Assembly: GCA_016432445.1 (NCBI GenBank)
Contig: CP066689.1
Span: forward strand, 960,001 to 992,000
Direction of reading: 5' to 3'
DNA: 32,000 bases
From: Candidatus Saccharimonadota bacterium
GTDB lineage: Bacteria; Patescibacteriota; Microgenomatia; UBA1406; GWC2-37-13
In this document: positions 11,749 through 32,000 of the stretch, one piece after another
Layout of the letters: the number at the start of each line of letters is the position of its first letter
How positions within the stretch are numbered: the first letter of the stretch is position 1
Notes under the pieces: generated by a model
What the model saw: the letters and a program-made list of their open reading frames with translations, nothing else
The model's database searches: none
What the model was told of the DNA's origin: nothing
Made by a program: the position numbers and the translations under genes

Positions 11749-11754
11749 GAGTCT

Positions 11755-16689: not shown

Positions 16690-17387
16690 AAGAGTTTAAA
16701 TCCTATGCCAATTAAAAATAATAATGTTCCAGCCGCAATAAAAATGGGGAGATTATTTTCTGTGATTCCTGATCTTGGCAGTTGAGAGACTGCCGTTGGA
16801 GCGGCAGTAGCATAAGTATTTGATGAAGAGGCAAGTGTGGGAGTGGCTGTTGGGTTGGAAGTATTACCGGCGCCTACAGTAACTGCTGATGTTCCATTAC
16901 TGGCGCAAAGGATAAGATCAGTACCGTTTAGATCATTTTTGGTAATATGTGAACCAGTGGCTGGACCGCAGGTAAAGCTCAAGTTAGCAGTACCATTTTT
17001 CAAGGCCTTAAATACGACTGTCGCTAAAGTACCGCTTCCTGACTTTGAAGTGGCAACATCATCAACTAACCCAACTACATAGACTGTACCGCCGGTCATA
17101 GTAGGATTGGTGACGGTTGTGAATATTGTACCGTTAGTGACTCCTTGTGGCTCGAGAACTGTTTGATCGTAAGTTATCACTGCGTCAACGCCTAAGTATT
17201 GATCGGTTGAAAGAGCATCAATTTTAACAGCTACCTCAAATGTTTGACCGGCAGTAGTAGTAACTGCGGCTGGATCAAACTTTAGTGCAGCCGCAAAAAC
17301 ATTTTTAAGCTGTGGTACCACAAAAAAAACTGCCAATAAGATTACTATCTGGAAAAAAATCCTTTTTATTTGCATTACATCTATCAT
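16686..17387 (-). CDS. cohesin-domain surface protein with an LPxSG-type C-terminal sorting signal
   Basis: Signal/TM segment, then the cohesin-like LKFDPAAVTTTAGQTFEVAVKIDAL...GVDAVITYDQTVLEP...TLATVVFKALKNGTANLSF. LPRSG (codons 16781-16767) is followed by a hydrophobic helix and a K-containing tail. Confidence 0.75.
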   Translation of the reverse strand: MIDVMQIKRIFFQIVILLAVFFVVPQLKNVFAAALKFDPAAVTTTAGQTFEVAVKIDALSTDQYLGVDAVITYDQTVLEPQGVTNGTIFTTVTNPTMTGGTVYVVGLVDDVATSKSGSGTLATVVFKALKNGTANLSFTCGPATGSHITKNDLNGTDLILCASNGTSAVTVGAGNTSNPTATPTLASSSNTYATAAPTAVSQLPRSGITENNLPIFIAAGTLLFLIGIGFKLL

Positions 17388-17420
17388 ATTCCATATTGTT
17401 TTTTATGTCAAACGTAACGA

Positions 17421-17476
17421 AATTAGATCTTAGATATTCGATATTAGATCTTCGAAAATCGAACATCAAATGTCGA
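17421..17476. repeat. TCTTAGA-type heptamer array
   Basis: Eight 7-nt units: aattaga, tcttaga, tattcga, tattaga, tcttcga, aaatcga, acatcaa, atgtcga. Same unit family as 4757-4798. Confidence 0.7.
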
Positions 17477-17483
17477 TGATCTC

Positions 17484-17918
17484 TTAAAGTACTCCTGCTT
17501 TCTTTACCATCTTAAGGTGTTCATGAAACATTGAGTGAAGAGGCACAGGCAGATTATCCAGTGAAAACCAGCCGATATTTTCTATTTTGTCAGGGTCCCC
17601 TATCTTTACTTTTTCAGGAATAACTTCGGCGGCAAAAATAACCGCTACCCAATGAGTTTTCTCTTTTCCATTTTTTCTTAAAACATTATTGACAGCAATA
17701 AACTTAAGATCAACTACCTCACTGCAGTACTCTTCCCTAATCTCGCGCCTAACAGCCTCCTCAAAAGTCTCCCCCACTCTCATCGCGCCTCCTCCCGGAT
17801 CCCAGACGCCAACCTCATCCCGGCAGTTCTTGCTTCTTTTATTCATCAAAATTTTACCTTTACCGTCATGGCAGTAAAATACGCAGCCAACGCCGATATA
17901 ATCAACCCCTTTTTTCAT
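17484..17918 (-). CDS. NUDIX hydrolase
   Basis: Nudix box GGGAMRVGETFEEAVRREIREEYCSEV in a 144-aa ORF. Confidence 0.9.
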   Translation of the reverse strand: MKKGVDYIGVGCVFYCHDGKGKILMNKRSKNCRDEVGVWDPGGGAMRVGETFEEAVRREIREEYCSEVVDLKFIAVNNVLRKNGKEKTHWVAVIFAAEVIPEKVKIGDPDKIENIGWFSLDNLPVPLHSMFHEHLKMVKKAGVL

Positions 17919-17945
17919 TTGAAGAAATTATAACAAAAGATTATA

Positions 17946-18692
17946 TTATATTTTTTTTGATGAAAGAAACTCCAGTACTCTATCTGTAGCAAAATGGATA
18001 CCTTCTAGTGGGTTTTCTGTTTTCATATAGTTAGAAACGAAATTAGCAAAGAAGGTATCTCCGGCTCCAAGTGTATTTTTAGTTTTTATCACTCGTTGTG
18101 TCTCAAAGCTATATTTTTTTCCAAAAACAAAGAGATCACAGCCTTTTGTTCCTTTAGTAATTAGCAAGATTTTCTCTTTTTGGATTTCTATAAAAGATTT
18201 AGGAATATAAGATATTTCATAATCTCCTGCCTTAAGGCAAAAAATAGATTGCTGAATTCCTTTTCCAGGGCGCCAATGTTTCTTTTTCCCAAAATCTTGG
18301 CCGTCACGGACATATCCTTGTATATCCAAAAATATTTGCCCTTTGTAATCCCCTATGCCATCTAAACTAAACTCATTCAATAGAGATGATATTAATAAAT
18401 AAGGAGCATCTATGTTTGAAAAATCAATTTTAAACGGAACTGGAACTGCTGTAATTTTCCCGAATTCATCATTTTCCTTAATAAGGATTTCTGTTTTAAG
18501 CTTAAAAACATGTTCAAGTTTAAAATCTACAGCAGCTTTCTTTAAAGCTTGCGTTATGTAATAGGCTGGGCCTCCCTTTTGTTTACTTAAGAAATTACCT
18601 TTTTCGTTATAAAGATAATCTTTGGCAAACGATGAAAAAATGGAGATATTATTTGTTTTTTTCATATTTGCTTTTAGCAAGTTGAATAGCAA
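17946..18692 (-). CDS. PfkB/ribokinase-family sugar or nucleoside kinase
   Basis: C-terminal NTLGAGDTFFANFVS (the GAGD anion-hole motif), and ILLITKGTKGCDLF before it. The start is uncertain (alternative ATG at 18665). Overlaps the upstream gene. Confidence 0.7.
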   Translation of the reverse strand: MLFNLLKANMKKTNNISIFSSFAKDYLYNEKGNFLSKQKGGPAYYITQALKKAAVDFKLEHVFKLKTEILIKENDEFGKITAVPVPFKIDFSNIDAPYLLISSLLNEFSLDGIGDYKGQIFLDIQGYVRDGQDFGKKKHWRPGKGIQQSIFCLKAGDYEISYIPKSFIEIQKEKILLITKGTKGCDLFVFGKKYSFETQRVIKTKNTLGAGDTFFANFVSNYMKTENPLEGIHFATDRVLEFLSSKKI

Positions 18693-19191
18693 ATGTTACT
18701 GCTTCTTCAGGATTTTTTGCCTCTTCAATTTTAAATCTTTTCCTATTATCTAAATATTGGCTGGCTAGTTTTTCACTCCACCCTCCGCTTCCTTTTAAAA
18801 CAACCACCGGAATATTCGCTTGATAGGCTATAGCTATTTCCGTTAACGTCCCTGACCCTCCACTAATGGCAATAATAACATCACAGCTTAAAACTAAAAC
18901 CAGTTCTCTACCGCCTCCCCTTTCCAAACCGCTGGCAATTACGACATCCACATTCTTTTCAACTATATCCATTCCTTTTCCATAAGTAACTCCTACTGTA
19001 GTTCCGTTAGCCTTTTTGGCTCCACGGCAAGCCGCAGAAGATAAAGAATCGCAATCTTTCTCTGCCCCAAACAAAAGCACGGCTTGATTTTTAGCTACCC
19101 AATAGCCTACTTCCTCTGCTAATTTTTCTATTTTTTTGGAATAGTTTAAATCAGCGCAAGAACCCATTACTCCTATCTGTATTTTTCTCAT
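18649..19191 (-). CDS. TIGR00725 / LOG-SLOG-like Rossmann protein (putative nucleotide N-glycosidase family)
   Basis: IQIGVMGS...AVLLFGA...AACRGAKKANGTTVGV...DVIIAISGGSGTLTEIAIAYQANIPVVVL matches the lysine-decarboxylase-like/LOG fold family. Confidence 0.8.
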   Translation of the reverse strand: MRKIQIGVMGSCADLNYSKKIEKLAEEVGYWVAKNQAVLLFGAEKDCDSLSSAACRGAKKANGTTVGVTYGKGMDIVEKNVDVVIASGLERGGGRELVLVLSCDVIIAISGGSGTLTEIAIAYQANIPVVVLKGSGGWSEKLASQYLDNRKRFKIEEAKNPEEAVTFAIQLAKSKYEKNK

Positions 19192-19208
19192 ATTTTGAAT
19201 TATAACAA

Positions 19209-20777
19209 CTACCTAATTAATAATTCTAAATCCTTTGGATCTTTCACGAGTAAAGTTTCCATTCCTAACTGTTGCGCCGGGTCGATATCGGTGGTCACCT
19301 GATCTCCTATAGAGATAATATTTTCAGGCTGGTACCGGCCGGCTAAAATTAAAAAGATCTCATCCTTCCTACCGTATTGCTCACCTGTGTATAAAGACTC
19401 AAAACAATCTTTTACTCTCAAAAATTTCAAAACTTGTTGAGCCCAAATTCTTGGGGCTGAAGTAAGCAAAACTAACTTTCTTTTTGGATTTTTTTCCTGA
19501 AGTTGCCTAATAGTATTCACGGCTGTTTCAAAATTTTGCACGATCCCTTCTGGATCGATATCCCAAACGACATTAAAGTAATCTGATCTTGTAATCCCAT
19601 ACCGGTTAGCTAAATATCTGCTAATCCCTATAGGGTCATTTAATCCTTGCCGTAAAATCATCTCTGCCGATTCTTCGTCACATACTTCTGTCATTATTAT
19701 AAACGCTTTTGCATTCCTTAATATTTCTTTTTCCAACTTAGATCCTTGGAAGCCATTATTAACACCATCGAGCTGATACAAAGTCCCATCCATATCGAAA
19801 ATTGCTACTTTTCTTTCTTGCTCTTCCTTAACGATCCTCAAACATCTATCTAGATAGTCAGTCACTCTCTCGTTAATGGAAACAGGAATTGTTTTTGAAA
19901 TATTTGTTGGTAAAGGGAAACCTGCCTTGACCAGCTCTTTGAATGTCAAACCGTTGGAACCGGTCGAAATTTCATATGCTTTTACCAGCTGACTAAAAGA
20001 TTTTATCATCTGTTGACTAGCATCAAAGAACCCTGGATTTTGATCTAAACTTGCACCGCAGCCATCACTCCAAGGATAAAGATAAGGTACAGAAGTAGTC
20101 ACTTTATTAGTTTTACTTGATGCCAGTTTTTTTCCTCCCAACGGACTAAAGTCTCTAATATCAATCCACTCGTATAAATTATCTATAGGTTCTGCAATAT
20201 CTGCATCAAATTTATCCATTGGCACTGACATATTGCCAATAAAACCAATAACTTTTCCTACATTAAGTTTTATTCCGTTATCAGAAGCTAAACGTAAAAA
20301 CTCCTCAACCGTACCTCCGGAAAATAATCCATCGTCAACAAGCAGGACTTTTTTTTGTGATATATCAGGAATTTTTATCCTCAGTTTAGCTATTTGACTC
20401 TCAAATGATTCATTCCCCTGCCGTGGCACTCTTTGACCATCAATAGAACGACATAAACTGAATCTGAAAAACCTATCTTCATACTCCTTTTCTTTTTCCA
20501 AACTTCCTAACAAAAACCTATCAAGGCAAACGCAGATCGTGTCAGAATCCCGTTTTAAAATTGGTTCCACCTTCTCTCTTAAACGGGATTCCATCTCTTC
20601 TTCGTAAAACCTAGCAACTTCTACGCTAGGATTTAGAAATTGAGAAAGAGCTGTCTCAACTTCGTCAAAATAAACTCTGACAGCATTGCTAAAACCGTCT
20701 TTCGATAAATCTAAACCTTTATTAATTTGAGAAAATAATCCGACTGTGTCTTGTGTAATAATATATTTTTCTGGCAT
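19209..20777 (-). CDS. fusion protein: type I phosphoribosyltransferase-like N-terminal half plus HAD-hydrolase C-terminal half
   Basis: KKVLLVDDGLFSGGTVEEF is a PRPP-binding loop. VAIFDMDGTLY is HAD motif I. LVLLTSAP is motif II-like. ISIGDQVTTDI is motif IV-like. Confidence 0.75.
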   Translation of the reverse strand: MPEKYIITQDTVGLFSQINKGLDLSKDGFSNAVRVYFDEVETALSQFLNPSVEVARFYEEEMESRLREKVEPILKRDSDTICVCLDRFLLGSLEKEKEYEDRFFRFSLCRSIDGQRVPRQGNESFESQIAKLRIKIPDISQKKVLLVDDGLFSGGTVEEFLRLASDNGIKLNVGKVIGFIGNMSVPMDKFDADIAEPIDNLYEWIDIRDFSPLGGKKLASSKTNKVTTSVPYLYPWSDGCGASLDQNPGFFDASQQMIKSFSQLVKAYEISTGSNGLTFKELVKAGFPLPTNISKTIPVSINERVTDYLDRCLRIVKEEQERKVAIFDMDGTLYQLDGVNNGFQGSKLEKEILRNAKAFIIMTEVCDEESAEMILRQGLNDPIGISRYLANRYGITRSDYFNVVWDIDPEGIVQNFETAVNTIRQLQEKNPKRKLVLLTSAPRIWAQQVLKFLRVKDCFESLYTGEQYGRKDEIFLILAGRYQPENIISIGDQVTTDIDPAQQLGMETLLVKDPKDLELLIR

Positions 20778-20929
20778 ATTGTTTAAAATAATTTTTAACC
20801 CACAAAAAACCCCGCCTTAAGCGGGGTTGTAAGTTTAAATAAATAACTAAGATTACCCCGCTGGAGCGAGGTTATGATGAACAATCTTTGAAGTTTGTAA
20901 TGTTAGACTTTTCATATTAACGTGTTAAT
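20778..20929 (-). promoter_or_regulatory. ~145-nt leader with tandem near-identical hairpins (terminator/antiterminator candidate)
   Basis: Minus-strand hairpin 1: AACCUCGC-ucca-GCGGGGUA (20873-20854, one G-U). Hairpin 2: AACCCCGC-uuaag-GCGGGGUU (20828-20808) plus a U-run. The 3' arm of hairpin 1 is perfectly complementary to the 5' arm of hairpin 2. Confidence 0.5.
20802..20828 (-). terminator. intrinsic terminator located upstream of the operon start codon
   Basis: 8-bp G+C-rich stem (20828-20821 / 20815-20808), 5-nt loop, then a U-run (plus-strand A-run 20804-20809). Only ~25 nt before ATG 20777. Confidence 0.6.
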
Positions 20930-20931
20930 AT
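20914..20931. promoter_or_regulatory. 18-bp palindrome ATATTAAC-GT-GTTAATAT, putative operator
   Basis: Perfect 8-bp arms. Abuts or overlaps the -10 box and start region of the minus-strand operon promoter, in the divergent intergenic region shared with the TrpR-like gene. Confidence 0.4.
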
Positions 20932-20958
20932 GATAACATACAGATATTTAACTGTCAA
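20930..20958 (-). promoter_or_regulatory. sigma70-like promoter of the nucleotide-centric operon
   Basis: Minus strand: TTGACA (20958-20953), 17-nt spacer, TATCAT (20935-20930). Confidence 0.55.
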
Positions 20959-20973
20959 TAGTTATTTAATGAA

Positions 20974-20981
20974 TGTATAAT
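20974..20981 (+). promoter_or_regulatory. extended -10 box TGTATAAT, leaderless layout
   Basis: TATAAT at 20976-20981, 6 nt, ATG 20988. Confidence 0.5.
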
Positions 20982-20987
20982 TTAAGT

Positions 20988-21317
20988 ATGAAGACTAAAG
21001 AGAACGTAAATACAAAATTTACTAAAACGGAATCCAGCTCTATTAAAAATAGTAAAGAAAGATTATTATTTAGAGCTCTTCTTGCGCAAAAAAATGAACA
21101 GGAAATGGCTGATTTATTAAGGGATCTTTTAACTTTACCTGAAATAGAAGAATTCTCTAACCGATTGGAAATCGCCAGGCAATTACGTGAAGGTCATTCT
21201 TACTTAAATGTTGCCCATAAAGTCGGCACCTCCACCACTACAGTTACTCGAGTTGCCCACTGGCTGTTTAAAGGCTGTGGCGGCTATTACCGCACGTTAA
21301 AGAAACTTATCAAATAA
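20988..21317 (+). CDS. TrpR/YerC-YecD family DNA-binding protein (second paralog)
   Basis: LLRDLLTLPEIEEFSNRLEIARQLREGHSYLNVAHKVGTSTTTVTRVAHWL parallels the 455-718 product. Start set at ATG 20988; the track's ATG 20973 lies upstream of the -10 box. Confidence 0.85.
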   Translation: MKTKENVNTKFTKTESSSIKNSKERLLFRALLAQKNEQEMADLLRDLLTLPEIEEFSNRLEIARQLREGHSYLNVAHKVGTSTTTVTRVAHWLFKGCGGYYRTLKKLIK

Positions 21318-21322
21318 TCAAC

Positions 21323-21931
21323 TTACTTAACATCAACCGTTATCTCAACTCCATTCACAGTTCCCAATACATCATTATTTTTATCATCAATTAAATTTGA
21401 ATCTTTTTTACTGCCGGGCAAAAATTCAATCTCAAAACTTGCTTTACCGGATTTTAATGCCTTAAATGTCAGTTCGGAAATAACCGTATTTTGAAAAGTT
21501 ACAGTAGAGGTGACACTTATTTTTTTTATACCAGTTAAGCTAAGTTTGCCATTATCATTTTGGGCAAAAACCTGAAAATCACTAAGCAAATTTTTTTGAC
21601 TTACATAACTTACAACGCTGGGATCATATTTAACAACTACATCATAACCGGTGATAGAACTGTTACTGGAATCAGCTGAAACATTAAGATAAATTGTTTC
21701 TCCAGCAACTAAAGGTTTTTTCGATGGATTAGGCAATAATGTTAAAGAGCCTTTGACAAGAGCAATTGAAGGCGCAACAGAAGGAGCAATACTTGTTGAA
21801 ACCGCTCCTTCATTTTTTACTAAGTTTTTCTTGTATATGAAAAAGGCTACGGCTATTAATAAAATAACTAGCAGAATAGGAAAAATTATTACAATCGGGA
21901 ATGGTTTTTTGGTTTCAGTTTGATTTTCCAT
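21323..21931 (-). CDS. membrane-anchored cohesin-like domain protein
   Basis: N-terminal TM helix PFPIVIIFPILLVILLIAVAFFIY. Cohesin-like ITGYDVVVKYDPSVVSYVS...VISELTFKALKSGKASFEIEF. Confidence 0.7.
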   Translation of the reverse strand: MENQTETKKPFPIVIIFPILLVILLIAVAFFIYKKNLVKNEGAVSTSIAPSVAPSIALVKGSLTLLPNPSKKPLVAGETIYLNVSADSSNSSITGYDVVVKYDPSVVSYVSQKNLLSDFQVFAQNDNGKLSLTGIKKISVTSTVTFQNTVISELTFKALKSGKASFEIEFLPGSKKDSNLIDDKNNDVLGTVNGVEITVDVK

Positions 21932-21954
21932 ATAATTTTAGTAAAAAAAATAAT

Positions 21955-23142
21955 TTACTCTCCTTCATCAACTTTAATAGATAAAGCACTAATAATTAAA
22001 GAGTAATCAGCAGAGTTAATTATGCCGTCAAGATTAACATCAGATGAGTTTAAGATATTAATATCGCTTTTGCCTAAATTGTTCCTGATAAGAGACAAGT
22101 CGTTAGAGTTTACAACCCCATCCTGACCTCCCTCTCCCGGCAAATCTCCTACAAATAGTAAGACACCAATTAAATTTAAATTATTTTCTCCAGGTACTAA
22201 ATTAATAATATTTCCTTTATCGCATTGATAAATCCCAGGTGACGTTTCTTTAGGTTCTAACTCACATATTTTCTTTTGCGTATGTTTTGGCCCTTTTACT
22301 AATAAATAGTATCCTCCACCTGCTAGAGCATTAAATGATGTCGTCCCACTCCAAACACCATTGTTGTCTGAAGTAAATTCAACAGGGTTTCCAATGACAT
22401 TGGTGACAGAACTTCCGCCTAATGCTACTTTAACTACCATTTTATTGAACTGATCTTCCGGTTTGCTATTTATCCCCTGAAATTTAAGCTTTAAGTTTAG
22501 CTTAATATTACCGTTCATGGGCGTAGTAGTTAATAAAGACTGAGCATTGATATTGGCACCTCCGCCTTCAGCTACGGGTACTTCTGAAAGATTATAATCT
22601 GCATTTATTTTATAAAATACATCTCCGCTTGGACTGTGAGTAATTATTGATGGATCATAGGAATTAGACACAAAAGTCAGCGTAATAACCTCTGCTTCCT
22701 CCGTTTTTGTAAGAATCTGACCCTCAGATTTTTGAATCTCCCCTTGAACATAAACAGCCCCCCACTCATTAATGACTGCTAAATTAGCTTTTGTATCACC
22801 TAAACCATTACTTACCACTCCTAGTTTATACTCAATATCCTTTAACTGAACTTTTGCTTTGTCAAAGTTTACTTTAAAAGAGTAGCCTCTGGTAGTAATA
22901 TCTATTGAAGGTTTTGCTTTTACTACGACTGTAAACTCTTGTTTAGGCGGAGCAGTTATTATCACTGGCGTAAATGATAAAACTACTGATTCTCCTGAAG
23001 CCTTCGTTGTTTTTTGAACATCTTTTTCCAAAAAAACATACCTCATCATCACCAATAAAACAGATAAACTGAAAAATAAAATAACTCCCAGTTTAATATA
23101 TATTCCCTTGTGGCTTTTTTTAAAGTTTTGATCGTCTTCCAT
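21955..23142 (-). CDS. membrane-anchored protein with a cohesin-like domain and a C-terminal dockerin
   Basis: TM helix near the N-terminus. Cohesin-like FTVVVKAKP...YSFKVNFDKAKVQLKDIEYK...VITLTFVS. C-terminal GDLPGEGGQDGVVNSNDLSLIRNNL...SDVNLDGIINSADYSLIISAL is a duplicated Ca-loop dockerin pattern. Confidence 0.8.
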   Translation of the reverse strand: MEDDQNFKKSHKGIYIKLGVILFFSLSVLLVMMRYVFLEKDVQKTTKASGESVVLSFTPVIITAPPKQEFTVVVKAKPSIDITTRGYSFKVNFDKAKVQLKDIEYKLGVVSNGLGDTKANLAVINEWGAVYVQGEIQKSEGQILTKTEEAEVITLTFVSNSYDPSIITHSPSGDVFYKINADYNLSEVPVAEGGGANINAQSLLTTTPMNGNIKLNLKLKFQGINSKPEDQFNKMVVKVALGGSSVTNVIGNPVEFTSDNNGVWSGTTSFNALAGGGYYLLVKGPKHTQKKICELEPKETSPGIYQCDKGNIINLVPGENNLNLIGVLLFVGDLPGEGGQDGVVNSNDLSLIRNNLGKSDINILNSSDVNLDGIINSADYSLIISALSIKVDEGE

Positions 23143-23143
23143 T

Positions 23144-24154
23144 TTATGGTCTTAATGAACGAATAATTACGGAGCGGTCATTCACTCCCACCTCACCATC
23201 TCCATTGAAATCAACGTTAACTGTCTGAGGAATCTTTCCTCCATTGACTACTGAAACATAATAAAAATAATCAAGATCATTTACTCTACCATTTCCGTCA
23301 GCGTCACCTCTAGTTCGTAAAGATGATCTGCACCATCCTGTTTTTTGCTCGTTAGTAGGCGTCGAGTTAAACATCGAGACAGAAAGAACGCACTTTATCG
23401 GATTGGAATAATTAACATCTGAATATTTATCAAATAAGCAAGCGCTCGTACACGTTCCTTCAGTTAAACTTGGGGAATTACAACCGCAGCTTGGATTTGG
23501 AGTTGGAGAAGGAGTTGCTGTAGCTGTTGGAGTAGGTGTCCTTGTAGGTGTCGGCATTGAAGTTGGCGTTGGCGTTGGAGTTGGAGAAGGAGTTGCTGTA
23601 GCTGTTGGAGTAGATGTCGGCGTTGAAGTTGACGAAGGAGTTGGAGTTGGAACAGAAGCACTGCAGTTAACAGTTTTAACACCTAAACGTGGATCTAAAT
23701 GATTACCGGCAGAATCATAATCTTGTCTTACACCAGAAGAATTTACATTGATAGCATAAGCTGAAACGTTTCTTTGTCTTCCGGTAAAAAAATAAGCTTT
23801 AGGGTTATATGTCCTTGATCCTTCAGTAAACGTGGTTGGTATGCTTTGAGGATTAAAGCTAAAGTTTCTATTAGTTGTCCATGCCGAACCTATAAATATA
23901 TTACCAAGAGGAATATCAGCATTAGGAGTACCAGCTGCACCTTGCTCCATCCAAAAATCAATCTGAATATTTGTAAGTGGCGAATCATCATCCACCACAT
24001 TTGAACCGATTAAAGCCGTGCAGGATGCCGCATCAAAACTACCCGTTGGTAAAGAAGAATTTGTCTGGGCGAAGCTTGGTTTGGGAATTAAAAATACTAA
24101 AGCAGATAAAAAAAATAAAATAAATAACTTTTCCCGGATACTGAGATTAAACAT
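23144..24154 (-). CDS. secreted protein with a PT linker and a C-terminal dockerin
   Basis: Signal peptide ...LVFLIPKPSFAQT. PT-rich linker. GDADGNGRVNDLDYFYYVS...VDFNGDGEVGVNDRSVIIRSL dockerin repeats. Confidence 0.8.
   Translation of the reverse strand: MFNLSIREKLFILFFLSALVFLIPKPSFAQTNSSLPTGSFDAASCTALIGSNVVDDDSPLTNIQIDFWMEQGAAGTPNADIPLGNIFIGSAWTTNRNFSFNPQSIPTTFTEGSRTYNPKAYFFTGRQRNVSAYAINVNSSGVRQDYDSAGNHLDPRLGVKTVNCSASVPTPTPSSTSTPTSTPTATATPSPTPTPTPTSMPTPTRTPTPTATATPSPTPNPSCGCNSPSLTEGTCTSACLFDKYSDVNYSNPIKCVLSVSMFNSTPTNEQKTGWCRSSLRTRGDADGNGRVNDLDYFYYVSVVNGGKIPQTVNVDFNGDGEVGVNDRSVIIRSLRP
23499..23612. repeat. 78-bp-period tandem duplication inside the PT linker
   Basis: The exact 36-mer GGAGTTGGAGAAGGAGTTGCTGTAGCTGTTGGAGTA occurs at 23499-23534 and again at 23577-23612. 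Confidence 0.8.
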
Positions 24155-24228
24155 ATAAGATAAAAATAATACAAAATGAATTTTTTGTCAAATTTACTTA
24201 TAAAAATTTTAACTTTTATATTCGTGAT

Positions 24229-25707
24229 TTACAGTTCGTCAACTTTAATTGAGAGAGCGGTAATTATTAAAGAATAATCTTGAGAATTAATAATATCATC
24301 AAGATTCAAGTCTGCAATCATAAGCTTTGCCGCTTCTGTTTTCCCTAAATTATTTCTGACAAGAGATAAATCATAAGAGTTTGCAATACCATCTTGACCT
24401 CCCTCTCCCGGCAAATCACCTGTCAGCTGATAAACGCCTGAAAAATCAAGATTGTTCTCGCCTTCATTCAAAACAACTGCCGCATTAGAACATCGGTAAA
24501 GCCCAGCCTGCGGCTCCTGCGGCCGTGATTCACATATCTTTTTCTGAATGTGTTTTGGTCCTTTTATTAATAAATAGTATTTATACTCAAAACCTGTGCG
24601 GGCATTAAAATTAGCTTTCCCTGAGTAAGTGCCGTCACTGTTGGGAACAAATGTTACCGGCTTGACTGGAGATCCGTCTACTGATCCTCCGGCTAAAGTA
24701 ACTTGAACTCTCATGCGGTTAAAAAGCGATGCCGGCTGTCTGTTTATTCCCTGAAACTTCAGTTTTATATTTAAAATAACGCTCTTTGACTGAGTTGGGG
24801 TAAGAGTAGGCGTTAAGGTTGGAGTTGGTGTATTTGTTGAGGTTGTAGTGGCTGTCGGTACAGGTGTCAAGGTCAAAGTTATAGTGGGAGTTAAACTCGG
24901 TGAAATGGCAGAACTTTGATACTGCAGACATTTAAATCCATTATCAAATCCATAACACCATCCCGGCTGATTATTAACTCCTAATGGACAATCGGCATTA
25001 CTGCGGCAAACCGCCCCATTGCATAGAGGAACCCATCTAAAGCGAGTATCTGATGTCGTTGGGATAGGCGCTGTGCCACAGTATCCCACAATCGGCGTAG
25101 CTGTTGGAACAGGTGTTCTTGTAGGTGTCGGCGTTGAAGTTGCAGTAGGAATAGTTGTAGAGGAAGGAATTGTTGGAGAAGGTGAAGGAGATACTACCGG
25201 CTGGCGGATATAATAAAAACTTGATCCGGCAACATAATTTTGCGAGATGTCCCATTGATTCTTGCATTGATTTCCCCCAACTAATGCATCCCCCCTCATA
25301 GCTCCAACTGCTATTCTATCGCCGCCTTGAGGTAAAGGAATTGAGTCATCAGCCGGCTGATTGGGGTCACATAAAAAAATGGCTGTGTTTCCGCTCCATC
25401 TTGAGAAAGGGCAGTTTTTTGGCCAGTTATTTTCACCAACAAAATAGCCGCAGATAATGTCCGGATAGCTGTTTGAACTAGCTTCTACCCGGCATTCAAA
25501 ACGCTGATCTTGCCCCAAAATTTCTGTTGTTACATTACTTGAGACACTATTTATACCACTAATACAAACACTAGTACTTGCTTTTGATTGATAGGTATTT
25601 TTATTTTTTTGAAGTTCGTATGAAAGTATAATGATAGCCATGCTGAAAAGGATGATTAATCCTATAATAAGAAACGGCGATATTTTTCTTTTGATTGATT
25701 CTTCCAT
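24229..25707 (-). CDS. membrane-anchored Cys-rich protein with PT linkers and a C-terminal dockerin; its C-terminal ~190 aa are paralogous to 21955-23142
   Basis: LNIKLKFQGINRQP...YYLLIKGPKHIQKKICE...GDLPGEGGQDGIANSYDLSLVRNNL...ADLNLDDIINSQDYSLIITALSIKVDE aligns by eye with the C-terminus of the 395-aa protein. Start set at ATG 25707; the track uses TTG 25713. Confidence 0.8.
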   Translation of the reverse strand: MEESIKRKISPFLIIGLIILFSMAIIILSYELQKNKNTYQSKASTSVCISGINSVSSNVTTEILGQDQRFECRVEASSNSYPDIICGYFVGENNWPKNCPFSRWSGNTAIFLCDPNQPADDSIPLPQGGDRIAVGAMRGDALVGGNQCKNQWDISQNYVAGSSFYYIRQPVVSPSPSPTIPSSTTIPTATSTPTPTRTPVPTATPIVGYCGTAPIPTTSDTRFRWVPLCNGAVCRSNADCPLGVNNQPGWCYGFDNGFKCLQYQSSAISPSLTPTITLTLTPVPTATTTSTNTPTPTLTPTLTPTQSKSVILNIKLKFQGINRQPASLFNRMRVQVTLAGGSVDGSPVKPVTFVPNSDGTYSGKANFNARTGFEYKYYLLIKGPKHIQKKICESRPQEPQAGLYRCSNAAVVLNEGENNLDFSGVYQLTGDLPGEGGQDGIANSYDLSLVRNNLGKTEAAKLMIADLNLDDIINSQDYSLIITALSIKVDEL

Positions 25708-25718
25708 AAACAATTTTC

Positions 25719-25747
25719 ATTGTAAACGATTTATTCCGTGTTGACAA
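25719..25747 (-). promoter_or_regulatory. candidate promoter of the cohesin/dockerin operon
   Basis: Minus strand: TTGTCA (25747-25742), 17-nt spacer, TACAAT (25724-25719), 11 nt, ATG 25707. Confidence 0.45.
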
Positions 25748-25769
25748 ATAAAAACTACTTTAATAGAAT
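25741..25769 (+). promoter_or_regulatory. sigma70-like promoter of the HTH gene
   Basis: TTGACA (25741-25746), 17-nt spacer, TAGAAT (25764-25769), 15 nt, ATG 25785. Confidence 0.55.
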
Positions 25770-25784: not shown

Positions 25785-26000
25785 ATGTCAGACTCTAATA
25801 AACCAGTAAAAATAGCATTAAATGATCTTCCTGATCTTTTAACAATAAGAGAAGTAGCTACTCTTCTTCGTGTATCAACTCTTACTGTCAAGCGCTGGGG
25901 TAAAAAAGGCAAACTGCCGGCTATCCGTATTAACTCGCGAGGCGACCGCCGCTACAAAAAAGATGTCGTCTTAAGACTTCTTGGCGTTAACCCTGAATGA
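25785..26000 (+). CDS. MerR/excisionase-type helix-turn-helix DNA-binding protein
   Basis: 71 aa. LLTIREVATLLRVSTLTVKRWGKKGKLPAIRINSRGDRRYKKDVV is the classic HTH_17/excisionase-family pattern. Confidence 0.85.
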   Translation: MSDSNKPVKIALNDLPDLLTIREVATLLRVSTLTVKRWGKKGKLPAIRINSRGDRRYKKDVVLRLLGVNPE

Positions 26001-26087
26001 AATCTAAGGGTTGAAGCAGAGTAACTTTAATTTTAATTAGTCAGACTTCCTTGATTTTTGTTGAATTTTGTGATAATATTATAGGAT

Positions 26088-28181
26088 ATGGGAAGAGTAG
26101 AGTTTCACCTGTTTCACCGAGAAAAAACACCAACTCCTGAACTAGTTGCGGCTTTTCCTCAGCATGTAGGCTTGCAGGGACGTTTATTGCTTGGCGGAGA
26201 AGCTTTAAATCCTGTCAAAAAAGATCTGTACGAGGTGACAGAACGTACCCTAGGCAAGCTTGCCAGCCATGATTATAAACCTCTTAATAATGCTTCAACC
26301 GGAGAAAGAACAGATTATTGGGATGGAAAAGAAGGTAACATTTTCTCTGCACAAAAAAGAGCCTGGGTAGAAAACACTGTCTCAATTTTCCAGAATACAA
26401 GAGGTTTTTTTGCCAATACGGATGAAGGTAAAAAATGGACTAAATTGTACAGACGCTTTGGAATTGAAACTTTAAACGTCAAATCTAACTCTATTGAGAA
26501 TTTTTACCATAAATACTTTACCGGTCCTTATAAACAGTCAGATATTAAAAGGTTTGTTTTTGATATTTTAGCTATTTACCGAGATCCTCAAAAAAAAACT
26601 CTTGACTATAAAAAACTGCAGGAAGATCTTGAAAGCATTCAGTGGATTGCCAATATTTTTGGCGCAACTTCAGCCGAGATTATCGGCCAGCTCATTGATG
26701 CTGAGGTTAAACTTCAAACTCAGCCTAAGGATTTGATTAAAAAAGTCAATGAACAAGTAAAAACAAATGGAACCAAAGTATTAAGGATTAATCATCTTAC
26801 TCAAGATGAAGAAAGACTCCTAAGGTTCCTCTGGGAAGGTAAAGAAGAAAAACTTCCTGGGTTTAAACCATCACCTGAGTGGCAGGATCCTATCCGTCCC
26901 CGCCAACCCACTCCAACTACAGAGGATATCAATAGATTTAAAATCAAGATGAAACATGTGGATAATAAAGCAACAGGAGTAAGAGATTTTCCTGACAGCC
27001 GGGAGATTGAAGGATTAACAGATCCTTTAGTTGTAGCTTATAACTTAAAACGCTTATACCCCGCAAGATATGCTCAAGATGTTAATGCCCTTGCTGAAAA
27101 TGTGCGTCAGGAACATGTTCATTTTCGAGGCTGGCTTGAGAAAATCCATCTTCCTCCTAATTATTATGTCTCAATGATGACAAAAAACTTGAGAGAATAC
27201 GCTCATTTTTTGGAAAAGACATATCGCATAACTATTCCCGAAATTAATAATTTAAAAGTGGTTCCTTTGTATGGAAAATCTGCGGAGTTATGGAATCCGA
27301 CTGGTACTGCAGGCGGTACTTTAGCTTTTGTAAACCCTCGCTACCCTGTCATATTTTTAGACTTTGATGTTATTAATCAACATGCTTTTTATCTTGGAGA
27401 AAAAAATATAGAGGAAATGACGGCCAAAGAGTTTGGTAAGATTATAGAAAAACTATTAAACGAAATCCAGCCTCATGAGTATACTCATCTTTTGTCAGAT
27501 ATTGCCAACTGGCATCTTATCAAAGATGAAGGCACACCTCAGGAGCAAACAACTGATATTGTTATGGGTAAACTAGGCTTATTGTTATTAAAACCTACTC
27601 CTCCTAAGGTAAGCCGCGAGGAAAGATTAAACTTGAAAGAAAGAGGACGAGCTTTAATGGAAGCTCTAACAGTAGAGTTGACAGAACAGTGGCTACGTCA
27701 TGTCAAAAACCGTTCTCTTGCCTTGCCTATTTATACTCGAGAAAGACAGTTATTAAACACATTGATCAATCAGATTTCCAAAGAGCGGAATGTTTCAAGG
27801 GAAGAGGTATTAGCCAAGTTTGTTGAGGCGTACTTTAAACCTCACGGCTTCAAACACTTAGCCGATTACTTATCTGGCAAAAAAATTGATAGAACCCAGT
27901 CTAAATTTGAATATGATCAAAATAGGAAACATTTTATGCAGATTATTTATGCTCTTATAGAATATGAGTCACAAGAAGCTGAAAGAAGCGGTATTTACCC
28001 TGATTACTCAATCACAAAAAATTATATCACCGGCTCGCTTTCCTTATCTCAAAAAGCACAGATTGAGCTCTTCTTAAGAGGCTACTCAAGAGCCGCATCC
28101 GACGTCCAGCTAACCCCTCAAGCTATTGAAGAGATAAGAAATGTTATAAGCGGTAAAAAACAAGAAAAGCTTGCCGCCTAG
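26088..28181 (+). CDS. orphan 697-aa protein: shared N-terminal module plus an HExxH zincin-like C-terminal region
   Basis: Long ORF with no signal peptide. Residues ~27-210 are paralogous to the next gene. HEYTH sits at codons 27474-27488 after a beta-rich segment, with acidic helices downstream (MEALTVELTEQW). Confidence 0.85.
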   Translation: MGRVEFHLFHREKTPTPELVAAFPQHVGLQGRLLLGGEALNPVKKDLYEVTERTLGKLASHDYKPLNNASTGERTDYWDGKEGNIFSAQKRAWVENTVSIFQNTRGFFANTDEGKKWTKLYRRFGIETLNVKSNSIENFYHKYFTGPYKQSDIKRFVFDILAIYRDPQKKTLDYKKLQEDLESIQWIANIFGATSAEIIGQLIDAEVKLQTQPKDLIKKVNEQVKTNGTKVLRINHLTQDEERLLRFLWEGKEEKLPGFKPSPEWQDPIRPRQPTPTTEDINRFKIKMKHVDNKATGVRDFPDSREIEGLTDPLVVAYNLKRLYPARYAQDVNALAENVRQEHVHFRGWLEKIHLPPNYYVSMMTKNLREYAHFLEKTYRITIPEINNLKVVPLYGKSAELWNPTGTAGGTLAFVNPRYPVIFLDFDVINQHAFYLGEKNIEEMTAKEFGKIIEKLLNEIQPHEYTHLLSDIANWHLIKDEGTPQEQTTDIVMGKLGLLLLKPTPPKVSREERLNLKERGRALMEALTVELTEQWLRHVKNRSLALPIYTRERQLLNTLINQISKERNVSREEVLAKFVEAYFKPHGFKHLADYLSGKKIDRTQSKFEYDQNRKHFMQIIYALIEYESQEAERSGIYPDYSITKNYITGSLSLSQKAQIELFLRGYSRAASDVQLTPQAIEEIRNVISGKKQEKLAA

Positions 28182-28206
28182 TACGCAAAACGAATAACGC
28201 AATAAT

Positions 28207-28233
28207 TTGACTTTTTAAAAAGTGTGCTATACT
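28207..28233 (+). promoter_or_regulatory. promoter with an extended -10, leaderless layout
   Basis: TTGACT (28207-28212), 15-nt spacer, TGc-TATACT (28225-28233), 6 nt, ATG 28240. Confidence 0.5.
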
Positions 28234-28239
28234 TATCTT

Positions 28240-30615
28240 ATGTCAGGAGAAAATCCACAGCCTGTTCCAATTGAAGGTGAAAAGAATCATGAACGTATTC
28301 TTCCTTATGAACCTTTAGTTGGACTGCAAGCAAGAATACTTTTGGGTGGTGAAAACATAAACTCAAAAAACCGGAGCCTTCCTGATCTAACTTTAGATCA
28401 AATAGATCAGTCAATGGCTACTCGAGAACAAACAACTTATCGATATTTAAGCAATTCTTCAACTCAAGAAAGAAAAGAATGGTGGAAAAAACAAGGAGTT
28501 GCCAAGTTTGATGAACGATTAAAAATTTGGGTTGATAAAACAACATCTGCTTTTCAAACAGGTAAAGACTACCTTAATCAAAGTGGTTGGAAAAATGCTC
28601 TAGGAAAAATTGGCATTAGCTCTGATACTTTCTCTCAACAGGATGCATTATCTCTTTATAATGAATTCTTTACTGGAGACAATAAACAATCGAAGACTAC
28701 TATTTTTATCTCTAAAGTTATTAACGCTTACTCTCAACGGGAAACTGATGGAAAAACGGTAAGTATTGATTATCAAGCCTTAAAAAAAGATCTTCCTGCT
28801 TTTCAATGGTTAGCTGGTATGTTTGGAGGATTAGGTAAAGAAGTTGTCGTTCAACTGATTGATGCTGAGGTAAAATCACGTATTCCTCAAGAAAAAGCAA
28901 CTTTAATTAATAGAGCTAATGAGAAAGAAAAAGTTAATAATCAGGCAGTAGCCAGACTTAATAGACTTAATGACAAAGAAGTTATCCTTGCAGATTACCT
29001 TTACAAAGGCAAAAGTACAGCAGATAACAATGATCATGGAGAAAATGACGGTAAAGACAACAAACGGCCTGAAGAAATAACCGAAACTGATCCTTATAAA
29101 ATAGCTTCTGTTTTGCTTGATTATGATACTGGTAAACCTAAAGATGTAAAGGTTGATCTCTCAAAAACCTTCCCACAATTCGTTGATAAAGTAAAACAAC
29201 ACATGGAAAAAGATTCTACTCTCTTTCCGTCTGGGAAAATACCTATGGTTTTATCAGATGTATCCCGCGCTATGATTGATAAAATTGCAGAGTCCGCCAA
29301 TAAAAAAAATAAAGAGCTGGGATTTGCTCTTCGTGGTGTACTATTAACCAGTGGAGATGAGAAAGATCATAAAAATGCTCTAGTAGCTGCTTTTGCTTCC
29401 CCTTCTATGGATTTTAAAGCCGCCGAGGCAGGAGTAACTCGAGTATCACCTGAGATTGAATCTCCTAATGCAGAAACTTTAGCTCAAAATACTAGTCTTG
29501 CCAGCTATTTCCAAGAACATGGAGAAACATCTAAAGGATTCCCTATTGCTAGTATTCATATACATTATGATGCTTTAGGTGAACGTTACCGCGCTAATCC
29601 TTCAGATACTGATTTCAATCAAGATATTCCTGATATTTTGAGAAAAAACAATCTCAAACAACATATCTGGGGCGTCGCCACAAAATCAGGAGGACAGCTT
29701 TATTTAAGAGTTTGGCTGAGTAAAAGAAAAGATGACGGCACTATCACCCACGAAGAAATACCTGTTGTTTTGCAATCGCAAATTGAAGGCAACAAACCTG
29801 AGCCTGAACCAGATGAAAATGATAAGCCTGAAACATCAACTGACCCATTTCCTCAACAAAGCGAAACCGAGAAAAAAATAACCGTAAGTCACCGCAAGAA
29901 TCTTGAAGCATCTCAAGCATTCATTAATAAACTTGACGAAGCTAAAGGAACAGCAATCCAAATAGTTGCTGACAATAAAGATCCCTCTAAAAATAGATGG
30001 CGAAATAAATATGGATTTGTATTTAGCCAAAATGGTTATTATGAAGTCGCAAGTATCGGTAATGTAAGAGAAAGATACGGATTACCTATGGCCATCGAAC
30101 ATTCAGGCAATCACGCAAAGCTCGTTTTAAAAATATTTAAAGATCAAGATCAATGGAAAATGATTTATTGGAATCCATATAATAGTGATGAATTAACTGG
30201 CGATCTTAATCGCGCGCCAATAAAAATTGAGACAATTGATGGATTAGAAAAAGTAACAGATTCTTCAACAGATGAAGAAGTAAAAGGAATACTAGAAGCT
30301 AATAATTTAGCGATTGATCGGGAAATTTTAGGAAAAATCATCAGTGACCCCAATTATAACTACGATCTTACTTTCGCTGATGATCGAAATCTTACTGATT
30401 CAGTAAAAGCCGCCAAATCAGGGTATCTACAACCTCATAGTGATGCCCAAAACTGTGTTGTTTTTTGCGTTTTTAATGCTGTCTTAAGAGCCGCAGCTAA
30501 ATGGCCTGAAGGAAAGTGTCCACCTGAGTTTGCAGAGTTTCAAAAAACCGGCCGGAAAAAATTTGAAGAAGATTTTGGCATCACCATAGCTACTAGAGAA
30601 CAACTCACTTCATAA
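28240..30615 (+). CDS. orphan 791-aa protein: shared N-terminal module plus a JAB/MPN+-like domain plus a CE-clan (Ulp1-like) Cys-protease-like domain
   Basis: Start at ATG 28240 places the conserved VGLQ at residue 27, exactly as in the upstream paralog. The track's GTG 28222 lies inside the promoter. The JAB-like and CE-clan motifs are detailed in the findings. Confidence 0.85.
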   Translation: MSGENPQPVPIEGEKNHERILPYEPLVGLQARILLGGENINSKNRSLPDLTLDQIDQSMATREQTTYRYLSNSSTQERKEWWKKQGVAKFDERLKIWVDKTTSAFQTGKDYLNQSGWKNALGKIGISSDTFSQQDALSLYNEFFTGDNKQSKTTIFISKVINAYSQRETDGKTVSIDYQALKKDLPAFQWLAGMFGGLGKEVVVQLIDAEVKSRIPQEKATLINRANEKEKVNNQAVARLNRLNDKEVILADYLYKGKSTADNNDHGENDGKDNKRPEEITETDPYKIASVLLDYDTGKPKDVKVDLSKTFPQFVDKVKQHMEKDSTLFPSGKIPMVLSDVSRAMIDKIAESANKKNKELGFALRGVLLTSGDEKDHKNALVAAFASPSMDFKAAEAGVTRVSPEIESPNAETLAQNTSLASYFQEHGETSKGFPIASIHIHYDALGERYRANPSDTDFNQDIPDILRKNNLKQHIWGVATKSGGQLYLRVWLSKRKDDGTITHEEIPVVLQSQIEGNKPEPEPDENDKPETSTDPFPQQSETEKKITVSHRKNLEASQAFINKLDEAKGTAIQIVADNKDPSKNRWRNKYGFVFSQNGYYEVASIGNVRERYGLPMAIEHSGNHAKLVLKIFKDQDQWKMIYWNPYNSDELTGDLNRAPIKIETIDGLEKVTDSSTDEEVKGILEANNLAIDREILGKIISDPNYNYDLTFADDRNLTDSVKAAKSGYLQPHSDAQNCVVFCVFNAVLRAAAKWPEGKCPPEFAEFQKTGRKKFEEDFGITIATREQLTS

Positions 30616-30666: not shown

Positions 30667-31164
30667 TTAGTTAAACTTTTCTTCAGGACTGGGAGGGACT
30701 GGGGCAGGAGGCGGAGGCGGAGGTGGAGCCATATCAACTGGATTAATGGAAACCGGCTCCTCTACTTTTTGAGCTGATTGGACTTGCCCTGAGCTTGCTT
30801 GCAGTGAGCCTGTCGAATCTGCCGAAGGGGTAACTGGCAAAAGATAGGCCGTGCGGAAGTTTAAAAGAACTGCGGCAATCTCTACGTCAAGATTAGGAAT
30901 TTTATCCATGAAAAATTTATTTAGCTCATCATCCGTCGGATTTTTATCCAAAAATTCATCAAGAGCAATCTGGTCTTTTTTAGACAGAAGATTTAAAAGA
31001 TGCAGGTTGATATCTTCATTTATTTGCTTTAAAAGTTCTTCTCTAACCAGATTTTTATTTTGATCGTTGACATGAGGATCTTTTCGATCGCGAATTAAAT
31101 CATCAACATAACTTAAAAGAGCCGCCTGATCCATCGCCGCCTTATCATTTGAATTGTTTTGCAT
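30667..31164 (-). CDS. hypothetical protein with a helical core resembling the Patescibacteria DUF5663 type and a poly-proline C-terminus
   Basis: 165-aa ORF. LSKKDQIALDEFLDKNPTDDELNKFFMDKIPNLDVEIAAVLLNFRTAYL. C-terminal MAPPPPPPPAPVPPSPEEKFN. Confidence 0.65.
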   Translation of the reverse strand: MQNNSNDKAAMDQAALLSYVDDLIRDRKDPHVNDQNKNLVREELLKQINEDINLHLLNLLSKKDQIALDEFLDKNPTDDELNKFFMDKIPNLDVEIAAVLLNFRTAYLLPVTPSADSTGSLQASSGQVQSAQKVEEPVSINPVDMAPPPPPPPAPVPPSPEEKFN

Positions 31165-31240
31165 AAGTGTATATAAACTTGTCCCTCCGAAGGGGAATGA
31201 TTTTATAATAAGTTAAATTTTAAATATTGTCAAATTAATT

Positions 31241-32000
31241 TCAAGCTGGCACAGTTTTATCCCCCACTTTATTATCTCTCCAATTTGGATCAGCCGCTTC
31301 ATGTTCAGAATATCCTGGTTTGTTATTATAATTTAGTGATCTAAATTCATTCAGCTTATATTTTAAAGCATTTGTGCCTGGCCGTCTTGGAGCATTTTCA
31401 GGCTTACCTCCACTTTTTTTAATCCTGTTGTTTTCAAATTCTTGCCATCGAGGATCGTCAGCTAGTCTTTTTAAAATTTCTTCTATTTCTACCTGCGAAT
31501 CTCCATAAATTGCCACCCGCGCATCAGTCGGAAGTAATCCATCATATTTACCTAATTCTTTGTTTGTTTCGCCAACCTTATAAGCTCCCATTAACCATTT
31601 GAAGTCTAATCGGTCATGTCTTTTTTTCCTTTCCTCGCCAACCTTCATCAAAAGATCCAGCACTCCTGGAAAATCTTCAGGTTCAATCATAAGGTAACCT
31701 CTAAAAGCATGATCGCTATCACTTTTTATTGGAGATCCATAAACTATCCTTTGCCACTTAAATTTGTTATCCACTCCCGTTGAAAATAAATTTTCTTGTA
31801 TCTCCCCGTTTCTCGCTTTCTCTTCAAATTGATCATAACGGTCTCTTATAACCTCTTTCAAATCACCAGGGTTGTCTTCTATCACTGATTGAGCTTCTTC
31901 TGTTTCGTTTTCTGATGGCTTAGTTTGCGGTAAAGGGGCTTTTTGTTCTCTTAATGTTTTTAAAAGCCCAGCTACATCAACGCTGTGGGACAAGAACTCA
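31241..32000 (-). CDS. orphan protein, probably N-terminally truncated by the window edge
   Basis: Frame open from 31241 to the window end; the track start is a TTG at 31993. No confident family. Confidence 0.7.
   Translation of the reverse strand, partial: EFLSHSVDVAGLLKTLREQKAPLPQTKPSENETEEAQSVIEDNPGDLKEVIRDRYDQFEEKARNGEIQENLFSTGVDNKFKWQRIVYGSPIKSDSDHAFRGYLMIEPEDFPGVLDLLMKVGEERKKRHDRLDFKWLMGAYKVGETNKELGKYDGLLPTDARVAIYGDSQVEIEEILKRLADDPRWQEFENNRIKKSGGKPENAPRRPGTNALKYKLNEFRSLNYNNKPGYSEHEAADPNWRDNKVGDKTVPA

Follow-up and report, generated by a model that had tools for sequence, protein, structure and literature searches.

A constant N-terminal module with exchangeable C-terminal domains in Patescibacteria: a candidate effector family

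Large modular repertoires of effectors that are eukaryote-like or enzymatic and lack Sec signals, sometimes encoded next to the secretion genes, are known from type IV secretion systems (T4SS) such as Legionella Dot/Icm and the Xanthomonas system with its X-Tfe effectors carrying an XVIPCD, and deubiquitinase-type effectors are common among T4SS effectors. Here, a protein family is described starting from a stretch of 32,000 nucleotides of a Patescibacteria genome (contig CP066689.1, positions 960,001 to 992,000, forward strand; assembly GCA_016432445.1), hereafter called the window, in which two tandem genes encode protein A (697 residues) and protein B (791 residues). Both proteins start with a common N-terminal module, the N-module, which is followed by unrelated tails with peptidase-like motifs. 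The reading favoured here, which we regard as an even call, is that A and B belong to a Patescibacteria-specific (Microgenomatia-type) polymorphic effector family without immunity genes, whose secretion is suggested by gene context. The taxonomic placement of the family is based on the NCBI name of the window proteins (Candidatus Roizmanbacteria) and on synteny.

The LXG toxins of the type VIIb secretion system of Bacillota, together with their Lap factors, likewise combine a conserved N-terminal domain with a variable enzymatic C-terminus (PMC10801868; bioRxiv 10.1101/2022.07.06.499029), and they share with the A/B family the presence of several paralogues per genome, small partners encoded nearby and a single-membrane envelope. 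However, the A/B family has no Pfam LXG match, no type VII secretion genes were seen, and the only FtsK-like ATPases near the family loci have FtsK alpha and gamma domains. Moreover, in place of a Lap/WXG-like pair it has a single small acidic partner that ends in a polyproline tail, and whereas LXG cargos are NADases, nucleases and lipid II phosphatases, those of the A/B family are predicted peptidases, helicases and phosphatases without cognate immunity genes. Polyvalent proteins of phages and conjugative elements also contain shuffled peptidase, helicase and methylase-like domains (Iyer et al. 2017, PMC5512222), and delivery via conjugation-type machinery is proposed for both groups. Unlike these, the A/B family has one fixed N-terminal module and a stable chromosomal synteny instead of a location on a mobile element, and lacks relatives in PHROGs or among viral contigs. 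Most T4SS of Patescibacteria are without a relaxase, and Microgenomatia commonly have pilin arrays; for Southlakia the system is essential, and it "may instead export proteins", no substrates being known (PMC12102498, PMC10633639).

The earlier note on this DNA, which was made from the sequence alone, had put the locus forward as a candidate for something new. This holds for the N-terminal module, the lineage, the constant small partner, the absent immunity genes and the sharing of cargo domains with neighbouring giant proteins, and a literature search found no paper describing the N-module family. It does not hold for the logic of the system: polymorphic effectors, LXG-type handles with small partners and polyvalent proteins are already known.

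The N-terminal module and its exchangeable tails

In a BLASTP comparison, residues 27-277 of A (26088-28178) align to residues 27-283 of B (28240-30612) with 31% identity, 51% positives and E=7e-35, confirming the common N-terminal module that the earlier note had seen by eye in the 697- and 791-residue proteins and extending its length from the estimated 190 to about 250 residues. Outside the N-module no further significant alignment segment was obtained, so that the tails of A and B are unrelated, and the complete divergence after the module claimed in the earlier note is borne out. With ATG 28240 as the start codon of B, as had been proposed, the conserved VGLQ begins at residue 27 of A and B alike, and the NCBI annotation uses the same starts. 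Calling these two proteins giant is not appropriate; a true giant gene begins downstream at 31241.

AlphaFold2 models show about 20 disordered residues, a confidently predicted helical domain and then a disordered linker. For A, the predicted local distance difference test (pLDDT) score of the helical module is about 85 (approximately 80-90 over residues 23-250), with residues 1-22 disordered; for B, it is approximately 80-97 over residues 21-260 and mostly above 90. The residues R32, S70, R74, W93, F191 and G192 are near-universal in the module, and E18, E73, N235 and E241 are conserved at 85-89%. Neither A, B nor the N-module has a match in Pfam, NCBIfam, PADLOC or PHROGs, the N-terminal region matches no Pfam or NCBIfam trafficking domain, no PDB relative was found by sequence profile, and the best Foldseek match of the A model has E=0.14. 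A common known domain, which the earlier note had considered as a possible alternative, was thus found neither in the family libraries nor in the PDB, and according to the models the N-module is a new, well predicted helical domain without structural relative in the PDB. As an isolated case, Pfam ABC1 was matched within the module of protein P0009 (E=1.9e-5), 1 of 124 members scanned; an ABC1 kinase-like module was rejected as spurious, and the module profile also does not retrieve the COQ8/ADCK structures.

The profile search proposed in the earlier note as a way to find further C-terminal partners was done with a profile built from nine N-modules in a full HMMER search (a word-index search gave few relatives, and scans of genome and metagenome collections with strict peptide patterns gave one locus each). 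At E<=1e-3 it retrieved 416 protein clusters, of which 305 pass E<=1e-10 and 174 also E<=1e-30, and the position of the module is nearly always N-terminal. Tail statistics were derived from 152 retrieved family sequences, and 124 members were scanned with Pfam. In the 152 sequences, the median start of the module is residue 1, and the tails following it are between 0 and 921 residues long. All-against-all comparison separated them into at least 32 groups without BLAST links, the largest being joined by multi-domain proteins. This strongly supports the assertion of the earlier note that a constant N-terminal module is combined with swapped C-termini, as it is characteristic of polymorphic toxins and effectors in the sense of Zhang, Aravind et al. 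2012.

The domains are also shuffled among each other. The HExxH tail of A type occurs in 35 of the 152 members, the middle domain of B (JAB) in 19, its C-terminal cysteine-containing domain (Cys) in 13, and a domain seen in protein P0008 in about eight, and the combinations N+HExxH+JAB (P0014), N+HExxH+Cys (P0026) and N+JAB+Cys (P0069) were found. Only a minority of the tails is recognisable by Pfam, as HopA1 effector family (6), DEAD/DExH-HA2 helicase (5) and PP2C (3), next to matches to Metallophos, transglutaminase-like, Peptidase_M54, GT2 and ORF6N; judged by these matches, the recognisable cargos are effector-like or signalling enzymes. P0008 itself (1170 residues, HYW86_05185; L001 1014-4526) is a third N-module paralogue of the same genome, encoded nine genes downstream of B, with a cysteine-peptidase domain of B type and two further domains without assignment, and its locus holds another giant gene (2236 residues). 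Two or three N-module genes were found at 7 of the 15 independent loci for which gene neighbourhoods were compared (the window, L001, L004-L006 and L008-L017), with three each in L008 and L009.

Side by side with the exchange of domains, -AA is the C-terminal dipeptide of 32 of the 152 members (21%), in many cases within P-x-x-AA, and A itself ends in EKLAA (window 28170-28178). Only 0.8 such ends are expected and 1 of 58 neighbouring large open reading frames (ORFs) has one (Fisher p=2e-4). The ending is independent of the domain, being present on HExxH-terminal, JAB-terminal and other tails. It resembles the C-terminal end of ssrA degradation tags and may represent a built-in ssrA-like degron or a C-terminal export cue.

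The combination of one constant domain with many variable ones is also frequent in defence systems, where a constant sensor is joined to variable effectors. The N-module might accordingly sense infection by phages or plasmids and the variable C-terminal domains execute the response, and toxin-antitoxin genes (PhdYeFM/PIN) and AbiEii in some neighbourhoods as well as the resemblance of the helix-turn-helix (HTH) protein encoded upstream of A to MADS MAD1 fit this idea. It is nevertheless unlikely, as A, B, the small neighbouring protein, P0007, P0008 and P0009 have no PADLOC match, the usual executioners are missing (no nuclease, TIR, SIR2 or pore-forming cargo among the Pfam-scanned members), the family resides in conserved chromosomal synteny and not in variable islands, and the viral contig collection yielded no relatives. 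An origin of the family from phages or plasmids was rejected for the latter reason and for the missing PHROGs matches.

Catalytic motifs in the tails of A and B

The middle domain of protein B contains the residues E359 (nt 29314), H440-x-H442 (nt 29557 and 29563) and S455-x-x-D458 (nt 29602 and 29611), which are invariant in 18 homologues. The AlphaFold2 model of B has a mean pLDDT of 82.8, exceeding 90 across most of this domain, and among the best 50 PDB matches in Foldseek all are MPN-domain proteins with probability 1.00, the top ones being BRCC36 (5cw3, E=1.3e-4), CSN5 and Rpn11, with E-values from 1.3e-4 to 1e-3, together with an Rpn11 homologue of Caldiarchaeum. By motif and predicted fold, the domain is thus of the JAB/MPN+ type, confirming the JAB-like signature read from the sequence earlier, and no Pfam model detects JAB here: B has no Pfam match at E<=1, and no JAB/Prok-JAB match was found among the 124 members scanned. 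With the JAMM/MPN+ isopeptidases Rpn11, CSN5, BRCC36 and the archaeal Rpn11 homologue, B has in common the MPN fold and a zinc motif of the form E..HxH..SxxD. It differs from them in the fusion to the N-module and to a cysteine peptidase, in a spacing of 12 residues from HxH to S and in the missing Pfam JAB or MPN match.

The C-terminal domain of B holds the candidate catalytic residues H625 (nt 30112), N645 (nt 30172), Q731 (nt 30430) and C739 (nt 30454). In 11 homologues H625, P646, Q731 and C739 are invariant and the proline is preceded by D, N or E. Homologous domains lie at P0007 518-714 and P0008 312-501. In a HMMER profile search against the PDB, it matches staphopain (1y4h, E=1.3e-3; 1cv8, E=3.6e-3), and its GHA...WNPW and Q...C segments both align to staphopain in permuted order. 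The aligned staphopain segments hold the active-site His/Asn and Gln/Cys, respectively. The four invariant residues of B lie within the two segments aligned to this family C47, clan CA enzyme, relative to which the domain is circularly permuted, its linear order being that of clan CE (Ulp1/adenain-type). The domain is therefore a candidate papain-type cysteine peptidase with the order His-Asn/Asp-Gln-Cys, which is typical of clan CE. Of the Ulp1-like signature stated in the earlier note, the catalytic order stands; a match to Pfam Peptidase_C48 or C47 was not obtained, and the PDB profile search returned only staphopain (C47), in permuted form. With the full-length B model in Foldseek, the list was filled by MPN matches and no fold match of the Cys domain was recovered.

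In protein A, the HExxH motif corresponds to H463-E-Y-T-H467 (nt 27474-27488), and H463, E464, H467, R519, G520 and E525 are invariant in 28 orthologues, with E525 (nt 27660-27662) being the candidate third zinc ligand. The tail is modelled as three strands and helices followed by the motif helix and a later helix with E525, at a pLDDT of 53-69 near the motif. It has no Pfam match, a PDB profile search found nothing relevant, and Foldseek with the A model returned nothing below E=0.1, FtsH protease appearing without significance at E of about 2. The tail is compatible with a putative gluzincin-type peptidase at the level of the motif, with E525 as a putative zinc ligand. For the earlier claim of an HExxH zincin, the motif was confirmed, and a peptidase fold or family match was not found. 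The peptidase folds anticipated for both C-termini were recovered for the MPN domain of B and not for the tail of A. Hydropathy analysis revealed no signal peptide, in agreement with the earlier note, and no transmembrane segment in A or B.

Small partner, giant genes and type IV secretion genes

The comparison of gene neighbourhoods, which the earlier note had recommended, revealed three recurrent elements at the 15 loci: a small gene (9/15), giant genes (8/15) and T4SS genes (5/15). The small gene directly adjoins B on the opposite strand (30667-31164), where the earlier note had stated that no small immunity-like ORFs are present, and its homologues with 43-67% identity adjoin N-module genes at the nine loci. 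The encoded protein consists of a conserved N-terminal part of about 115 residues, a variable linker and the sequence PPPPPPPAPV near the C-terminus; the latter is present in 8 of 10 homologues and missing in the two copies of L013, which are 17-18% identical to the window copy. The window protein has no transmembrane segment and no match in Pfam, PADLOC, NCBIfam or PHROGs. A relationship to the N-module was rejected (hhalign probability <1%).

An adjacent small gene, together with a constant N-terminus, variable C-termini and tandem paralogues, is what is expected if A and B were classical interbacterial polymorphic toxins directed against kin or competitors and the small neighbour their immunity protein. 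This is very improbable. The small protein stays constant whatever cargo adjoins, which is unlike an immunity protein, as these co-vary with their toxin, and a single copy serves loci that hold two or three different cargos. Moreover, the ORF listing contains no ORF between A and B nor directly after B on the same strand, so that a cognate co-varying immunity gene was not found at A/B, and no known toxin-trafficking domain was detected.

The giant genes encode proteins of 1.6-3.4 thousand residues with PP2C, GT9 and Metallophos domains and adjoin the small gene at the eight loci. In the window, only the 3' end is present; genes of 2471 and 2284 residues occupy the same position in the syntenic L009 and L014. 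The giants of L005, L006, L008, L009, L010, L013, L014 and L001 have a conserved core of about 1500 residues in common, and an N-proximal module of about 240 residues is common to differing giants, as an example to the GT9/PP2C giant and the kinase giant in L006. This N-proximal module was rejected as a relative of the A/B module (hhalign probability <1%). The last approximately 200 residues of the window giant are 52% identical to the C-terminal domain of the N-module protein P0057 (E=1.8e-66), and the giants of L013 and L008 also match them in their C-terminal regions. As the C-termini of the window giant and P0057 match, the same cargo domain is used by two types of carrier. Furthermore, a Fic-domain protein (L006 12149-13198) and a 1296-residue APH kinase-like protein (L010 13775-17665) are encoded between N-module genes and giants, which adds to the effector-island look of these two loci.

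T4SS genes lie within 10 kb in L006, L008, L010, L013 and L016. The first four have a block in common, in which a protein of about 1200 residues, a regulator of the Trans_reg_C family, VirB2-like T4SS_pilin genes (three to four) and an M50-like protein of about 230 residues are followed by the N-module genes. The regulators of these loci share no more than 44-57% identity, showing that this gene order is kept over considerable divergence, and a TrbL gene lies at the edge of L013. In L016, the N-module gene is found between dnaA and rnpA, 3 kb from PrgI, TraC-like and VirB4-like genes; virB4 near dnaA, dnaN and rnpA is the chromosomal setting reported for the Patescibacteria T4SS (PMC12102498). 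The linkage has p=2e-4 if loci are taken as independent and p=0.12 if counted as two events. The statement of the earlier note that no secretion genes are present therefore holds for the window, but not for these five related loci, which lie beside pilin arrays or a PrgI/TraC/VirB4-like core. A pilin hidden Markov model (HMM) built from the arrays found no pilin gene in the window or L001. Genes of the 23S_rRNA_IVP family (PF05635) occur within and beside the pilin arrays (L008 5512-8099, L013 3849-9172). The window, L009 and L014 are syntenic: genes for L28, M50, cohesin and dockerin proteins come first, and N-module genes, the small gene and a giant follow, with no pilin gene at any of the three. 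In L015 and L017 (8288-14620), the N-module gene is far from any pilin, small-protein or giant gene.

The features of the window are listed in Table 1. The HTH gene upstream of A, reported by the earlier note, was confirmed by Pfam HTH_17 (1.7e-9) and MerR_1 (7.5e-9) and by the BldC subfamily and excisionase domain models of NCBIfam, and it is linked to the pair of module genes only in the window and its closest relative L009. Promoter-like sites are in the region overall no commoner than in shuffled sequence.

Table 1. Features of the window in the region of A and B (nucleotide positions within the window)
Feature	Position	Strand	Description or basis
Promoter-like site TTGACA-17-TAGAAT	25741..25769	+	5' of HTH gene; consensus scan, 11/12 matches; pattern only
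Small HTH protein (71 residues, pI 10.7)	25785..26000	+	MerR/excisionase/BldC type; Pfam, NCBIfam
Protein A (697 residues, HYW86_05135; NCBI: hypothetical protein)	26088..28181	+	N-module, disordered linker, HExxH domain, -LAA end
N-terminal module of A	26088..26843	+	Residues 1-252; module HMM E=6.9e-109
Tail of A, putative zincin-like metallopeptidase	27003..28178	+	Residues 306-697; HExxH motif
Protein B (791 residues, HYW86_05140; NCBI: hypothetical protein)	28240..30615	+	N-module, JAB/MPN+, acidic linker, candidate cysteine-peptidase domain
N-terminal module of B	28240..29013	+	Residues 1-258; module HMM E=6e-97
Predicted JAB/MPN+ (JAMM) metalloisopeptidase domain of B	29092..29799	+	Residues 285-520; motif and Foldseek
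Candidate cysteine-peptidase domain of B	29992..30612	+	Residues 585-791; conserved H-N-Q-C
Small acidic protein (165 residues, pI 4.4)	30667..31164	-	Weakly DUF5663-like; homologues beside N-module genes
Promoter-like site TTGACA-17-TATTAT	31205..31233	-	Just 5' of small gene; consensus scan, 11/12 matches; pattern only
3' end of giant gene running off the window	31241..32000	-	Encodes C-terminal cargo domain of about 200 residues

The region immediately upstream of the HTH gene (16060-25713, minus strand) encodes a series of proteins with cohesin, dockerin and fn3/purple-acid-phosphatase-N domains, of which two inspected ORFs (23144-25713) contain Pro/Thr-rich linkers. L009 and L014 have this block in synteny, which points to a surface scaffold resembling a cellulosome in these candidate phyla radiation (CPR) genomes. 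An SLOG/LDcluster4 protein (18649-19191, minus strand) is encoded beside a phosphoribosyltransferase-HAD hydrolase fusion (19209-20777, minus strand); genes of NUDIX and PfkB-like type are near, and this cluster may serve nucleotide salvage or signalling. No Pfam match at E<=1e-3 was obtained for four large ORFs of the window's left half (1450-3291, 3321-4292, 6136-8916 and 10357-11784, minus strand; 613, 323, 926 and 475 residues).

Export or intracellular docking

The polymorphic effector logic is ascribed to the family because a constant module is combined with shuffled cargos in several divergent paralogues of a 1.1-Mb genome, and because giant neighbours share cargo with it, a Sec signal and a cargo-specific immunity gene are missing and a constant small partner is present. 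As pilin arrays and T4SS core genes recur nearby, the T4SS is a candidate for the export route. The N-module would then act as a delivery or recognition handle guiding cargo that does not depend on Sec to a specialised route of export, for which the relaxase-less type IV secretion/pilus apparatus of these bacteria is the most plausible candidate, and the small acidic neighbour might help as adaptor or chaperone. The cargo would act on proteins of the host cell; B, as an example, might cleave isopeptide or peptide bonds of ubiquitin-like or other protein conjugates. Targets that are absent from the producer would explain the absence of immunity genes. The neighbouring giants might represent a second class of carriers drawing on the same pool of cargo domains. 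The step from a modular family to exported effectors is one that we infer rather than show.

Several observations weigh against export. The four pilin-linked loci are syntenic and correspond to about one event, leaving two independent events in 15 loci, which is not significant (p=0.12), and the window, L009 and L014 are without a T4SS gene within reach. To our knowledge, T4SS substrate signals are C-terminal and not N-terminal: known T4SS effectors carry C-terminal signals or adaptor-binding domains, whereas the constant part of the A/B family is N-terminal and its link to the T4SS is found at 5 of 15 loci, not including the window. At four loci the N-module gene has housekeeping genes as neighbours, namely RNase J and FtsK on either side in L015 and L017, SecDF before it in L012, and dnaA and rnpA on either side in L016. 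The HExxH and Cys domains were assigned by their motifs and gave no fold match, and the near-invariant polar residues R32, S70, E73 and R74 of the module could equally mark an enzymatic or regulatory site.

Some of these points lead to the main rival, an intracellular docking or regulatory module, by which the N-module would bring different self-acting cytoplasmic enzymes to one machine or signal of the producer, such as RNA processing or protein quality control, without any export. The housekeeping contexts of L012 and L015-L017 and the polar residues of the module suit such a function, as do the lack of a signal peptide in A and B, the DExH/HA2 helicase and PP2C cargos, which are ordinary cellular enzymes, and the ssrA-like -AA end of 21% of the members, which fits a control of cytosolic turnover. 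Yet at least 32 unlinked tail groups and the rapid divergence of paralogues (31% identity within one genome) are unexpected for a housekeeping domain, several copies represent a large investment for a reduced genome of 1.1 Mb, the HopA1-like cargos, the Fic gene in L006 and the cargo-sharing multi-enzyme giants speak against it, and the repeated occurrence beside pilin arrays and the T4SS core would be left unexplained. Intracellular docking is thus regarded as possible, but clearly less probable than a polymorphic effector family.

Meaning for the biology of Patescibacteria

Patescibacteria/CPR bacteria represent a large share of bacterial diversity, and their cultivated members live as epibionts on host cells. 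Their mostly relaxase-less T4SS is essential in one genetically tractable species (PMC10633639, PMC12102498). A bolder and distinctly tentative proposal is that the N-module proteins and the giants are the missing substrates of this essential T4SS, which would be injected into host cells and there reprogramme RNA metabolism, phospho-signalling and the conjugation and proteolysis of proteins; host-specific targets would make immunity needless, and in about a fifth of the members the -AA end would send copies that are not exported to degradation. Even if the proteins should be intracellular, the module would still be a new helical domain, as judged from its model, without relative in the PDB. 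The family supplies testable reagents, i.e., the N-module as export tag, the small partner and the JAB, Cys and HExxH catalytic residues, and with more than 400 clusters, one N-terminal handle and dozens of putative enzymatic cargos it represents a concrete candidate effector repertoire by which these bacteria may manipulate their hosts.

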